Source: an uncultured Candidatus Saccharibacteria bacterium
Lineage (GTDB): Bacteria > Patescibacteriota > Saccharimonadia > CAILAD01 > JADZBC01
Length of the DNA: 21,302 bases
Assembly (NCBI GenBank): GCA_964573585.1
Contig: CAZNJX010000005.1
Coordinates: 1-21,302 of the forward strand
Reading direction: 5' to 3'
Shown: one piece after another, positions 4,535 through 11,653 of the stretch
How positions within the stretch are numbered: the first letter of the stretch is position 1
Layout of the letters: every line of letters starts with the position of its first letter
The notes under the pieces: model-generated
The model's input: only the letters and a program-made list of their open reading frames with translations
What the model was told of the DNA's origin: nothing
Databases searched by the model: none
Made by a program: the position numbers and the translations under genes

Positions 4535-4590
4535 GTGATAATAACGTACTGCACCCCGGGACAAGTCCCGGGGGTGCGAATTGGTTAAGG
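4535..4590 (-). repeat. 3' element A, variant copy 0: GTGATAATAACG + GC hairpin gcaccccggga-caag-tcccgggggtgc
   Basis: Shares the 12-mer gtgataataacg with copies at 6372 and 8777. Hairpin sequence differs but position and tail are conserved, so on the gene strand it reads hairpin + aguaCGUUAUUAUCAC. Confidence 0.6.
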
Positions 4591-4639
4591 ACCCCATCGT
4601 CTGTGACGGTCGGCCGATGCGGGCCTTGCCGTCTTCGGC

Positions 4640-5665
4640 TCAGCGCTGGCGGTGATGCCAGCGATCCCTGCGGCGGCGGCCGATCATCTTCTGGAGTTCA
4701 GGCACTGAGTAGGTGCCCTCCTCCGGCTCGATACCATCCTTGGCAACCAGCGTCTTCACCATGATGCTCCCGTCGCGGTAGGCGGCGGCGGTGAAGGTGT
4801 ACTTCGTGCCGCCCTTGGCGACCACGAAGGGTTCTTCGATCTCCCCGAAGGAAGTCTGGAACATCGTGACGCCGCGAGCGACGTTGGCCGAGCGGGTCTC
4901 CGGCCCCTGGGTGGTGTGCCGCAGAGGGAAGTCCGAATCCGAGCAGTGCTTGCCAGTGCTGTAGCGCTTAACGTACGCGTCAAGCTTAGGCAGGTCGATG
5001 TGACCCCAATCCATGCCATAAGCCCCGATCGGGATGCCGTCGAGCATGTCTCGGATGCCGAGCTGGGCAAAGAGGGCACCGAGACTCTCTTCTGCAGGCA
5101 TGAGAGTATCGATGAACTCCTCATGCGCCTTGTGGGCCGCCGACTCGGCTTCCTGCTTGGCGATGAGCTCGTCGATAATCGGATGCGGAGAAATCTTGCC
5201 TTCCGCAACCAAACCCTTCAACTCGTGCACCGACACCTTGATGTCGCGATCGCGGACGATCGTCAGCATCGCCTCCAGCTCCTCGCTGGCCGGCACCGCG
5301 GCAAGGATCCCGGCACGGAGCGCGTCGAACGCCGCGCGGTCTCCGAACTCAGCCGCGAGCTCGTCGATGTGACGTTGGTCGCTCTGATGCGGATGTTCAG
5401 ATGCCGCGTACCAGCAGGCACACAGTGTACCGCTATTGATCTGCGGGGTGTGCTCCAGCAACTTCATGGCACGCCACGACTGGATGAGCATGTGCGGCAT
5501 CACGAGGCCCCAGATGGACCCACTGCCCTCGCTCGAGAGTTGATAGCCGACTCCGAATGAAGCGAACTCGCCTTCCCTGTCGGTTCCCGCAAACGGGATG
5601 ACCTCGTGCTCCTGGCCATCGATGACCTTGGTGCACGGATTTCCTTGGGCGACCAGAACGGTCAT
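4640..5665 (-). CDS. Hypothetical protein, about 65% GC (cargo 1). Weak suspicion of a DinB/MDMPI-like N-terminal domain (His-rich PHML...HTP...HPH).
   Basis: ORF-track ORF trimmed to the ATG at 5665, which lies 5 nt downstream of the conserved GAAAGGGG SD of leader L1. C-terminus ends in an Arg-rich tail GRRRRDRWHHRQR. No family recognised by eye. Confidence 0.7.
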   Translation of the reverse strand: MTVLVAQGNPCTKVIDGQEHEVIPFAGTDREGEFASFGVGYQLSSEGSGSIWGLVMPHMLIQSWRAMKLLEHTPQINSGTLCACWYAASEHPHQSDQRHIDELAAEFGDRAAFDALRAGILAAVPASEELEAMLTIVRDRDIKVSVHELKGLVAEGKISPHPIIDELIAKQEAESAAHKAHEEFIDTLMPAEESLGALFAQLGIRDMLDGIPIGAYGMDWGHIDLPKLDAYVKRYSTGKHCSDSDFPLRHTTQGPETRSANVARGVTMFQTSFGEIEEPFVVAKGGTKYTFTAAAYRDGSIMVKTLVAKDGIEPEEGTYSVPELQKMIGRRRRDRWHHRQR

Positions 5666-5707
5666 GTTGCACCCCTTTCTAAGGGCTCTTGTATCTAATA
5701 TTTCAAG
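5666..5707 (-). promoter_or_regulatory. Conserved 5' leader L1 (CTTGAAAT-N16-CCCTTAGAAAGGGG-N5-ATG)
   Basis: Homologous to leaders at 7813..7855 and 11504..11544. SD-like AAAGGGG sits 5 nt before the ATG in all three. Confidence 0.7.
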
Positions 5708-5753
5708 ATTGCAAATCGGGTAGTTTTGGAACTCCACCGAAAAGACAAATAAT

Positions 5754-11503: not shown

Positions 11504-11544
11504 ACTGTCCCCTTTCTAAGGGATTGGTGTTTAGAAATTTCAAG
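11504..11544 (-). promoter_or_regulatory. Conserved 5' leader L3 (CTTGAAAT-N15-CCCTTAGAAAGGGG-N5-ATG)
   Basis: The 14-mer cccttagaaagggg is identical to L1. The octamer cttgaaat is identical in all three leaders. Confidence 0.7.
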
Positions 11545-11588
11545 GAGTCTAAATTGGAACTGTATTTCAGTATCCGAAAAGACGATTT

Positions 11589-11617
11589 ATTCTACTATGA
11601 AACAGGTAAGAACTCAA
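11589..11617 (-). promoter_or_regulatory. sigma70-type promoter P3 (minus strand TTGAGT-17-TAGAAT)
   Basis: Read on minus strand: ttgagt tcttacctgtttcatag tagaat. The downstream aatcgtcttttcgg block is shared with P1. Confidence 0.55.
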
Positions 11618-11653
11618 TACTTTTATCCCTGTTATGCTAGATACAGCCTACCT

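Follow-up and report, generated by a model that had tools for sequence, protein, structure and literature searches.

Among the described systems that resemble the locus presented here, chromosomal superintegrons with VCR-type attC sites hold units of one or a few genes in tandem, with a conserved repeat of 100 to 150 nt in one orientation and some of the genes inverted, and their content, like that of the array described below, varies greatly between close relatives. In integrons, attC sites are imperfect palindromes with RYYYAAC and GTTRRRY as their boundaries, and most cassettes lack a promoter of their own and depend on Pc for expression. The phage moron is an autonomous promoter-gene-terminator unit inserted between other genes, often of differing GC content; in our case, there is no phage context and the units carry homologous scaffolds within an array. 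In Neisseria, minimal mobile elements are cassettes exchanged by transformation and homologous recombination, with the homology coming from flanking conserved genes, and Correia elements are small intergenic repeats with inverted termini that supply promoters and terminators and occur throughout the genome. The array shares with the Neisseria systems the exchange of cassettes by recombination, as we propose it below, and the small repeats with putative promoters and terminators. A further likeness is to the tRNA-anchored islands of Prochlorococcus, the tycheposons, where a streamlined genome has a variable island at a tRNA or tmRNA 3' end with cargo modules in series; those islands are marked by integrases and partial tRNA repeats (bioRxiv 10.1101/2020.12.28.424599). 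[quoted passage not shown] No paper that connects MVP with Saccharibacteria came up in full-text literature searches, and nothing relevant was found on integrons in Patescibacteria.

The window (the whole stretch of DNA analysed, 21,302 nt) comes from an uncultured Candidatus Saccharibacteria bacterium. Its positions 4466-11686 are a variable accessory-gene array made of self-contained transcription units, and the terminus of this array is the 3' end of a tRNA-Gln gene. The initial annotation had described three modules, in which a promoter, a leader and a 3' element of common origin surround unrelated minus-strand genes. We confirmed the three open reading frames, which encode a soluble protein (cargo 1), a membrane protein (cargo 2) and an MVP homologue. 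The features of the array are as follows.

4391..4465, plus strand: tRNA-Gln (UUG), found by ARAGORN and scored at 62 bits by Rfam; its 3' end abuts the array.
4470..4546, minus strand: tRNA-side copy of the junction repeat, with the box CGTTATTATCAC at 4535-4546 and the hairpin AGCCCACTC..GAGTGGGCT at 4500-4523.
4470-4498, minus strand: promoter-like block TTTAAC-17-TATAAA of the tRNA-side junction copy.
4552..4576, minus strand: 3' GC hairpin of module 1, CACCCCCGGGACTTGTCCCGGGGTG, 5 nt upstream of the box; read from sequence.
4640..5665, minus strand: cargo 1 coding sequence, 341 aa.
5666..5782, minus strand: module 1 5' scaffold, with the candidate promoter TTGCAT-17-TATAAT at 5754-5782 and a leader with a 5' hairpin.
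Module 1 leader parts, minus strand: GTCTTTTC at 5739-5746 (5' hairpin), CTTGAAAT at 5700-5707 and the Shine-Dalgarno (SD) hairpin CCCTTAGAAAGGGG at 5672-5685.
5800..5853, minus strand: distal part of a junction repeat upstream of module 1, with the 22-nt core GGCTGAGCGCTGTGGTCTAGA at 5833-5853 and a CTCAAAGTGGGGCATGGCGGGC block at 5800-5821.
5905..6300, plus strand: DUF1801 gene (Pfam DUF1801, E 1.2e-9), 36% GC, between two cores.
6301..6320, minus strand: degenerate core copy GGCTGAGCGTCGCATCTGGA, starting directly after the DUF1801 stop codon; read from sequence, and below the 3-mismatch threshold of the core search.
6370..6474, minus strand: 3' element A of module 2, with hairpin P1 at 6425-6462, the GNRA-loop hairpin GGACCCCACGGTAACGTGGGGTCC at 6388-6411 and the box CGTTATTATCAC at 6372-6383.
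6484..7812, minus strand: cargo 2 coding sequence, 442 aa.
7813..7927, minus strand: module 2 5' scaffold, with the candidate promoter TTGATT-17-TATAGT at 7899-7927 and a leader with a 5' hairpin.
Module 2 leader parts, minus strand: CTTGAAAT at 7848-7855 and the SD hairpin CCTTCCGAAAGGGG at 7818-7831.
7981..8057, minus strand: junction copy in the interval between the MaoC unit and module 2, with the hairpin ACCCACTC..GAGTGGGT at 8035-8057 and the core GACTGAGCGTTGCGGTCTGGA at 7981-8001.
8005-8032, minus strand: decayed promoter-like block TTGGTC..CTCTCT of the preceding junction copy.
8091..8757, minus strand: MaoC-like dehydratase unit, with the candidate promoter TTGACC-17-TAGAAT at 8729-8757, the coding sequence at 8137-8673 and a putative terminator at 8091-8112.
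8775..8879, minus strand: 3' element A of module 3, with hairpin P1 at 8830-8867, the GNRA-loop hairpin at 8793-8816 and the box CGTTATCATCAC at 8777-8788.
8882..11503, minus strand: MVP homologue coding sequence, 873 aa.
11504..11617, minus strand: module 3 5' scaffold, with the candidate promoter TTGAGT-17-TAGAAT at 11589-11617 and a leader with a 5' hairpin.
Module 3 leader parts, minus strand: GTCTTTTC at 11576-11583, CTTGAAAT at 11537-11544 and the SD hairpin CCCTTAGAAAGGGG at 11509-11522.

Two genes intervene between the modules, the high-GC MaoC gene (Pfam MaoC, E 1.3e-22) and the low-GC DUF1801 gene on the opposite strand. Both the shared leader and the 3' box are absent from the MaoC unit, whose terminator is followed by a junction copy. 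Coding regions have a GC content of 58-63% against roughly 36-45% between units, a pattern that could arise if high-GC genes had been misjoined into a lower-GC metagenome-assembled contig. We find such an artefact hardly credible, as the same modules and junctions are present in independent assemblies from different projects (contigs L001, L005, L002, L011 and L012), and in all of those assemblies the AT-rich scaffold is contiguous with the GC-rich coding sequence. The view that the cargo genes came from a foreign high-GC donor did not hold up well either. We dropped high GC as a sign that genes had recently arrived from such a donor, because the GC content of the MVP gene exceeds that of its surroundings in every genome and at every locus sampled. 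In addition, among the 60 homologues of cargo 1 the few with names are from Patescibacteria, the rest being unnamed metagenome sequences.

The MVP identity is backed by two Pfam domains, MVP_shoulder (PF11978, E 9.5e-24) and Vault_3 (PF17795, E 3.6e-10), and the length of 873 aa is within the roughly 850 to 900 aa expected of an MVP with shoulder and vault repeat domains. In both respects, the protein is like the bacterial homologues described before. We found 5715 homologues, of which those with names are from Patescibacteria; the full-length ones carry the name major vault protein in their source, and the one on the closest related contig (L001) is 77% identical. The cargo 2 protein is rare. 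Its N-terminal part is an FN3/Ig-like sandwich and its C-terminus is basic, and long helices, putatively transmembrane, are predicted. Cargo 1 is soluble; its fold has no solved structural relative, and no relatives of it were found on viral contigs. The start codons chosen in the initial annotation agree with the start points of the homologue alignments. The database annotation of MVP (P0001) has 860 aa and starts 13 codons later.

Upstream of the three genes lies a homologous scaffold, a predicted promoter followed by an 85-nt leader. From the -35 element to the ATG, the pairwise z scores against shuffled sequences are 7.2, 8.6 and 6.7, compared to about 1.4 for the region upstream of MaoC, and the motif pair CTTGAAAT-N-GAAAGGGG occurs three times where 0 are expected. 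We read the three as paralogous copies of one scaffold. Some details of the original description needed correction. Of the proposed sigma70 promoters, TTGATT-17-TATAGT and TTGAGT-17-TAGAAT were found by a consensus scan but module 1 failed it, its -35 element TTGCAT matching three of the six consensus positions. Among the shared leader blocks, module 2 has CCTTCCGAAAGGGG and not CCCTTAGAAAGGGG, GTCTTCTTG and not GTCTTTTCGG, and lacks AGTTCCAA. Similarly, the spacing of exactly 5 nt before the ATG applies to modules 2 and 3, but the distance from GGGG to ATG in module 1 is 6 nt.

The scaffold would work through a sigma-70-type promoter, a 5' untranslated region that opens with a hairpin, the single-stranded segment CUUGAAAU, and a small hairpin that would hold the extended Shine-Dalgarno sequence GAAAGGGG 5 to 6 nt upstream of the ATG. 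All leaders have a predicted 5' hairpin, although the sequences differ (z of -1.1 to -3.3) and cannot be aligned, and RNAalifold recovered only the SD hairpin. This hairpin is conserved across the leaders, with thin covariation support from few, closely related sequences. Rfam found only the tRNA in the window, both at gathering thresholds and at E<=5, with no known cis-regulatory RNA or ribozyme, and only tmRNA in the related loci. A T-box was suspected by eye ahead of the tRNA synthetase gene of L005 but was not reported by Rfam. The cargo 1 promoter and leader are 92% identical between the window and L005 compared to 86% for the coding sequence, and the MVP leader is 74% identical compared to 74.5% for its coding sequence, so that the non-coding parts of both appear to be under selection.

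This leader is native to MVP, since it is present upstream of the MVP orthologues in L001 (z 17.3), L002 (6.8), L011 (5.1) and L003 (8.3), down to 64% identity. Cargo 2 tells a different story. In the window, the sequence upstream of it matches the MVP-type leaders (z 7.8-10.9) and not the sequences that precede its orthologues in L002, L011 and L008 (z 1.3-3.2). The latter resemble one another (z 7.7-14.6) rather than the adjacent MVP leader (z 1.7-2.4), and the orthologues have another structured element as their 3' untranslated region, which in L002 and L011 is hammerhead-like. Thus, the scaffold of cargo 2 has been swapped on both sides of the gene in the window. The MVP-type scaffold has been copied onto cargo 2, and also onto cargo 1. 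A second leader family (TCGAACAYTGA), which would have joined cargo 1 of L006 to the cargo 2 orthologues, was dropped because its support was weak (z 2.3-3.9).

The 5' leader was found only at MVP, cargo 1 and cargo 2; it is absent from five other modules. On contigs L002, L011 and L012, from two other lineages, MVP and cargo 2 lie side by side in divergent orientation. Such a pattern could be expected if the three genes were simply a regulon of vault components, in which shared cis-elements came from co-regulation, the repeats were nothing more than regulatory and terminator sequences and the arrays differed through ordinary insertions and deletions. The purifying selection that seems to act on a leader specific to three genes fits this, and so does the OmpR-type two-component system that adjoins the array in L001 and L005. 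We nevertheless consider a regulon without any mobility quite unlikely, given the swapped scaffold of cargo 2. Co-regulation itself is a separate matter: the three genes probably are co-regulated, and cargo 2 is the most likely partner of MVP. The association has exceptions, as no MVP lies near the cargo 2 homologues at 43-47% identity or within 10 kb of the cargo 1 homologues in L005, L006 and L007.

Downstream, the three modules share a 3' scaffold of a GC hairpin and the box CGTTATYATCAC, and the 3' motif CGTTATYATCACTT occurs three times against 0.19 expected. Element A of modules 2 and 3 (105 nt, 6370-6474 and 8775-8879) is 96% identical, in line with the near-identity first described. 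The claim of a 3' element common to all three modules survives for the architecture of GC hairpin and box, but that architecture is all that module 1 shares with element A (z 3.9-5.9). Element A contains two hairpins, one of which has a GNRA loop that varies between GUAA, GCAA and GAAA, again with thin covariation support; the hairpin in module 2 scored as terminator-like and the module 3 copy has a z of -2.9. Because the two copies in the window are 96% identical to each other and 77% identical to the orthologous copy in L001, we suggest that element A has been homogenised by conversion within the genome. It is placed after different cargo genes in the window, in L001 and in L005.

The 3' scaffold turned out to be the start of a longer repeat, so that the scaffold is larger than originally described. 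This junction repeat of 107 to 155 nt consists, in order, of the box, a putative bidirectional terminator (a second terminator for the module), a promoter-like TTGACT-16-TATAAG and the 22-nt core GGCTGAGCGYTGTGGTCTAGAT, which is present in the window at 5833-5853, 6301-6320 and 7981-8001 and is the most conserved piece. The repeat separates all units of the array. The flank downstream of tRNA-Gln is homologous to it: the tRNA-side copy is 83% identical to a junction of L005 across 78 nt, and its hairpin is the predicted bidirectional terminator. In L005, nine cores lie within 10 kb (8541-18417), all on the plus strand and none outside, and separate nine units that include low-GC genes. Junction copies are found at units as unrelated as a tRNA synthetase, EamA, an FMN reductase and an AAA ATPase, which would not be expected of elements that serve only a vault regulon. 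We consider that the two alternatives of the initial annotation are each partly supported and apply to different parts of the scaffold. A common chassis on unrelated genes is borne out by the swap around cargo 2 and by the junctions around many unrelated units, while a co-regulated set of three is partly supported by the specific leader and by the neighbouring MVP and cargo 2 genes elsewhere.

Could the junction be a selfish intergenic repeat, similar to MITE or REP sequences, that carries a terminator and a promoter and has spread beside arbitrary genes, with the three-module pattern as a by-product? Full and partial copies are numerous (some are the core alone, others a -10 element and the core), there is a long form in which a 48-nt insertion goes with a duplication of TACTTGGCTG, and the strict common orientation recalls strand-specific elements moved by HUH-type enzymes. 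The 3' element does behave as a common repeat at arbitrary genes within the array. However, in the roughly 57 kb of three related genomes (the window, L001 and L005) from which the junction is known, all copies are confined to arrays of 7-10 kb and none is present in the other two-thirds (about 40 kb), so that in this DNA it does not look like a genome-wide repeat. Neither terminal inverted repeats nor target-site duplications were seen in the aligned junction copies. Viral contigs gave 0 matches to the 3' pattern or the core pattern, GenBank phages and PLSDB plasmids had no match to the junction, and a scan of a genome collection with a narrow pattern for element A gave two occurrences, both on one contig. 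As a selfish repeat would also leave the gene-specific 5' leader unexplained, we hold this origin to be very unlikely. By eye, the box CGTTATYATCAC and the core fit poorly to a Fur box, a DnaA box, a dif/Xer site, an attC R' site, an antisense promoter or both halves of a tRNA.

The array differs completely between close relatives. The sequences of L001 and L005 agree at 95-98% identity as far as one point, beyond which they are unrelated, and the content of their arrays is wholly different, with MVP or cargo 1 alternating at one site. For a regulon with ordinary insertions and deletions this would be surprising in two near-identical genomes. It is the comparison of these two assemblies that suggests that the array is mobile. 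The same alternation is found beside tmRNA in other lineages, with MVP in L003 and L027 and cargo 1 in L006 and L007. A position at the 3' end of a tRNA or tmRNA gene therefore recurs, at tRNA-Gln in the window and at tmRNA in these four loci. In L013, from a distant organism with 40% GC, a single core lies 0.85 kb from the 3' end of tRNA-Asn in the same relative orientation, with one open reading frame in between.

These observations raise the possibility of a site-specific cassette system like integrons or tRNA-targeting islands, where the 22-nt core and its flank would be an att-like site on each cassette and a recombinase encoded elsewhere would insert cassettes at a tRNA 3' flank. The uniform orientation of the cores irrespective of the direction of the genes would fit, as would the end of the window's array exactly at the tRNA-Gln 3' end, where the final bases, CAGCCAAG, agree with those that close the core. 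This is all that the core shares with the tRNA-Gln end, however, and none of the tRNA ends in these loci is identical to the core. Whereas integrons have IntI and attI, neither was found near the array (open reading frames of the window; gene lists of L001 and L005), and no recombinase or integrase was present in the window or in L001, L002, L003 and L005, where contig ends limit the view. In contrast to tycheposons, direct repeats of tRNA or tmRNA 3' ends, as expected for att sites, were not above chance in the window, L003, L006 and L013, and the junction repeat combines a terminator, a promoter-like block and the core. The junction also has GTTATYA instead of GTTRRRY, no complementary R'' partner and none of the R''/L''/L'/R' palindrome of attC; its only palindrome, read from sequence, is a perfect terminator stem. 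Unlike most integron cassettes, each module has its own -35/-10 promoter, leader and terminator as predicted. Finally, the left boundary of the difference between L001 and L005 was not located at a core. Taken together, we judge a site-specific system of this kind to be rather unlikely. A more specific version is also doubtful, namely, that a clade of Saccharibacteria has a new integron-like type of cassette, in which complete expression units end in a composite junction, the core, resembling a tRNA 3' end, is the recombination site, insertion at the tRNA 3' flank is by an unseen recombinase, and one role is the distribution of MVP and partner proteins.

The reading that we prefer, with somewhat better than even confidence, is that the array consists of self-contained transcription units built on a shared chassis and shuffled by recombination at the junction repeats. 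The common 5' scaffold would have the three genes transcribed, stabilised and translated by the same rules, which makes them a likely co-expressed set. Between adjacent units, the junction would act as an insulator, with a terminator followed by a promoter-like block. At the same time it may serve as portable homology, through which recombination, plausibly following uptake of DNA, could add, remove, convert and re-flank units.

Patescibacteria (CPR) have tiny genomes, and how they regulate and acquire genes is little understood. This locus suggests a concrete route for both, in which accessory genes may travel as units that are ready for expression, each on a scaffold that can be reused and that supplies the promoter, the leader and the terminator. 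It may also offer a first testable lead on the biology of bacterial vaults, in the form of an MVP with a conserved 5' untranslated region and two proteins that share its expression scaffold. According to recent reports, Saccharibacteria are genetically tractable, and parts of the scaffold may become useful as expression tools for these organisms.

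The window is one whole contig of 21,302 bp. Three of its minus-strand genes carry the promoter, leader and 3' element that make up modules 1, 2 and 3:

4640-5665, minus strand: cargo 1
6484-7812, minus strand: cargo 2
[quoted passage not shown]

The initial annotation held that their scaffolds are homologous, and the module finding is real. Global alignments from the -35 box to the ATG gave z = 7.2, 8.6 and 6.7 against shuffles for the three module pairs, whereas the MaoC gene interposed among them gave about 1.4 for its promoter region in the same test, and therefore the homology is real and specific. 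All three modules contain the leader motif CTTGAAAT-N-GAAAGGGG (3 observed in the window versus 0 expected) and the 3' box CGTTATYATCACTT (3 versus 0.19), and a 105-nt element (element A) lies behind cargo 2 and MVP, with 96% identity between the copies. The scaffolds are less uniform than had been described. Module 2 has CCTTCCGAAAGGGG and GTCTTCTTG and lacks AGTTCCAA; GGGG lies 6 nt from the ATG in module 1 instead of exactly 5; the predicted promoters are of the sigma70 type, but the -35 box of module 1 is weak; and the 3' end of module 1 has only the hairpin-plus-box architecture in common with element A.

The leader folds into a hairpin beginning a few nucleotides past the predicted transcription start and varying in sequence among copies (z of -1.1 to -3.3), a single-stranded CUUGAAAU, and a small hairpin CCCUUAGAAAGGGG holding an extended Shine-Dalgarno sequence. 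Host genes of the window have AAGGAG- or GGAGG-type sites without this Shine-Dalgarno hairpin. The MVP leader is found upstream of the MVP orthologues in the related loci L001 (77% amino acid identity; z = 17.3), L002 (69%; 6.8), L011 (5.1) and L003 (64%; 8.3), and is therefore ancestral to MVP. The regions preceding the orthologues of cargo 2 in L002, L011 and L008 are mutually alike (z of 7.7 to 14.6) but resemble neither that of cargo 2 in the window (1.3 to 3.2) nor the adjoining MVP leader (1.7 to 2.4), and the cargo 2 3' UTR of other loci also differs from that in the window. The region upstream of cargo 2 in the window, in contrast, matches MVP-type leaders (7.8 to 10.9). Judged from these alignments, the leader is not ancestral to cargo 2; the MVP-type scaffold has thus been placed around cargo 2 in the lineage of the window. 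Cargo 1 has received it as well, both in the window and in L005. The promoter and leader of cargo 1 are 92% identical versus 86% for the coding sequence, and the MVP leader 74% versus 74.5%; noncoding parts conserved as much as or more than the coding sequences argue that the module scaffolds are functional. The conserved leader and homologue alignments also back the ATG of the 873-aa MVP, 13 codons (11465-11503) upstream of the start in the public annotation (P0001, 860 aa). Separately, a 22-nt repeat, CTTGTCTCCTYGTTTTAATNTA, the reverse complement of a ribosome-binding region, is present at 1921-1942, 3534-3555 and 3556-3577; both peroxiredoxin genes have it upstream, which gives these two antioxidant genes a common translation-initiation region.

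In the 3' UTR of cargo 2 orthologues we observed a candidate hammerhead-ribozyme-like three-way junction, CUGAUGAG-helix II-CGAAA:

L002, 41-97, minus strand: hammerhead-like junction
L011, about 2275-2340: hammerhead-like junction
L012, about 2227-2292: hammerhead-like junction

Compensatory changes distinguish L002 from L011 in helices II and III, whose partner helix I has 4 bp. The minimum free energy fold reproduces exactly this junction; Rfam gave no match for it.

MVP and cargo 2 are divergent neighbours on three contigs, L002, L011 and L012 (which represent two lineages, as L011 and L012 are near-identical), and this supports a functional link between the two. In L002, a MaoC homologue is found near MVP too. 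MVP is not adjacent to the more distant cargo 2 homologues. The shared scaffold and shared hotspots are all that may link cargo 1 to these two genes. MVP homologues with 37 to 43% identity also occur on 11 viral-classed IMG/VR contigs of 29 to 470 kb (L016-L026), which may be either very large phages or bacterial fragments, possibly from CPR, that were misclassified; no homologue of cargo 1, cargo 2 or MaoC lies near MVP there. The GC content of MVP exceeds that of its surroundings in all loci checked (the window, L001-L003 and L016-L026; for example, 52% versus 36.5% in L020), and high GC thus looks intrinsic to this gene family and not like a mark of recent import. Host-like genes of the window have 49 to 55% GC. 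Outside the array, a 279-aa ORF with 63% GC (16586-17425, plus strand) has its own promoter-like upstream region, without the junction repeat described below, and matches no Pfam family.

The fold of element A has two hairpins, and the GNRA loop of the second varies among GUAA, GCAA and GAAA. In related genomes, more sequence follows the hairpin and box: a predicted perfect bidirectional terminator (AGCCCACTC..GAGTGGGCT), then TTGACT-16-TATAAG, which is close to consensus, and then a core of 22 nt, GGCTGAGCGTTGTGGTCTAGAT. The composite junction repeat thus formed comes in two sizes, compact (107 nt) and long (about 155 nt), and pieces of it are present in the window:

4470-4546: junction piece
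5800-5853: junction piece
6301-6320: junction piece
7981-8057: junction piece

The genes preceding element A differ among the window, L001 and L005, and therefore the 3' scaffold is a general array junction, not one restricted to the three genes. In L005, nine cores, all on one strand, lie within 8541-18417 and none outside that span; they set apart nine units (three small low-GC opposite-strand genes, an 83-aa gene, cargo 1, an AstE-tRNA-synthetase pair, EamA, an FMN reductase and an AAA-DUF1360 operon). The copies of element A are more alike within the window (96%) than to the orthologous L001 copy (77%), which suggests within-genome conversion. Long junctions (L005 9896-9948 and 11346-11398; L001 12789-12841) have 48 nt inserted between TATAAGTAC and the core; the inserted segment ends in a duplicated TACTTGGCTG and resembles a small insertion with target duplication. 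In a further variant (window 5858-5904; L001 14765-14840), the core is followed by ACCTTTGG and hairpin ACCCTTTCGGGT, directly upstream of unrelated opposite-strand genes (DUF1801 in the window, a 133-aa ORF in L001); here TATAGT lies 6 nt before the ATG, suggestive of leaderless mRNA. Several module promoters are preceded by GGGACA-N4-GGGACA direct repeats, a possible binding site for an OmpR-family regulator; a response regulator of this family, paired with a histidine kinase, is encoded about 7 kb from the array in both assemblies (L001 15-1693; L005 1106-2844).

Array content differs among close relatives. Over an 8-kb flank, L001 and L005 are 95 to 98% identical, but past one point they have nothing but junction repeats in common, and the same site holds MVP in L001 versus the 83-aa gene and cargo 1 in L005. 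Likewise, in the same syntenic neighbourhood beside tmRNA, MVP is found in L003 and L027 versus cargo 1 in L006 and L007. In the window, the array extends from where a beta-helix protein gene ends (11686) as far as the 3' end of tRNA-Gln, whose downstream flank is homologous to the junction. A second indel between L001 and L005 is an amino-acid permease gene (L001 1694-2947), absent at the same place in L005 (2844-2893); a 77% identical homologue lies at 19287-20498 in the window. In L001, a GC-rich stretch of about 400 nt (9468-9860) without a called gene separates the array boundary from the MVP promoter. Preceded by TTGACA..TATGAT and without an Rfam match, it could be a new RNA or a decayed cassette.

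We favour a model in which units would recombine through the conserved junctions, which would double as terminator-plus-promoter insulators, because neither the window nor the related loci encode a recombinase, no repeats of t(m)RNA ends were found, the junction has no attC features, and it has no matches in viral contigs, phages or plasmids. A dedicated cassette recombination system is a serious rival. In a distant 40%-GC organism, the single copy of the core and the 3' end of tRNA-Asn lie 0.85 kb apart, with one ORF between, and this keeps a site-specific model alive alongside recombination through the junctions.

The two readings proposed at the outset, a common chassis on unrelated genes and a co-regulated gene set, each apply in part, to different parts of the scaffold. 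The modules and array resemble known cassette or island architectures; our literature searches turned up no published account of such arrays in Patescibacteria. The most important additions to those readings are the variable array with its junction repeat and the evidence for scaffold swapping between genes.
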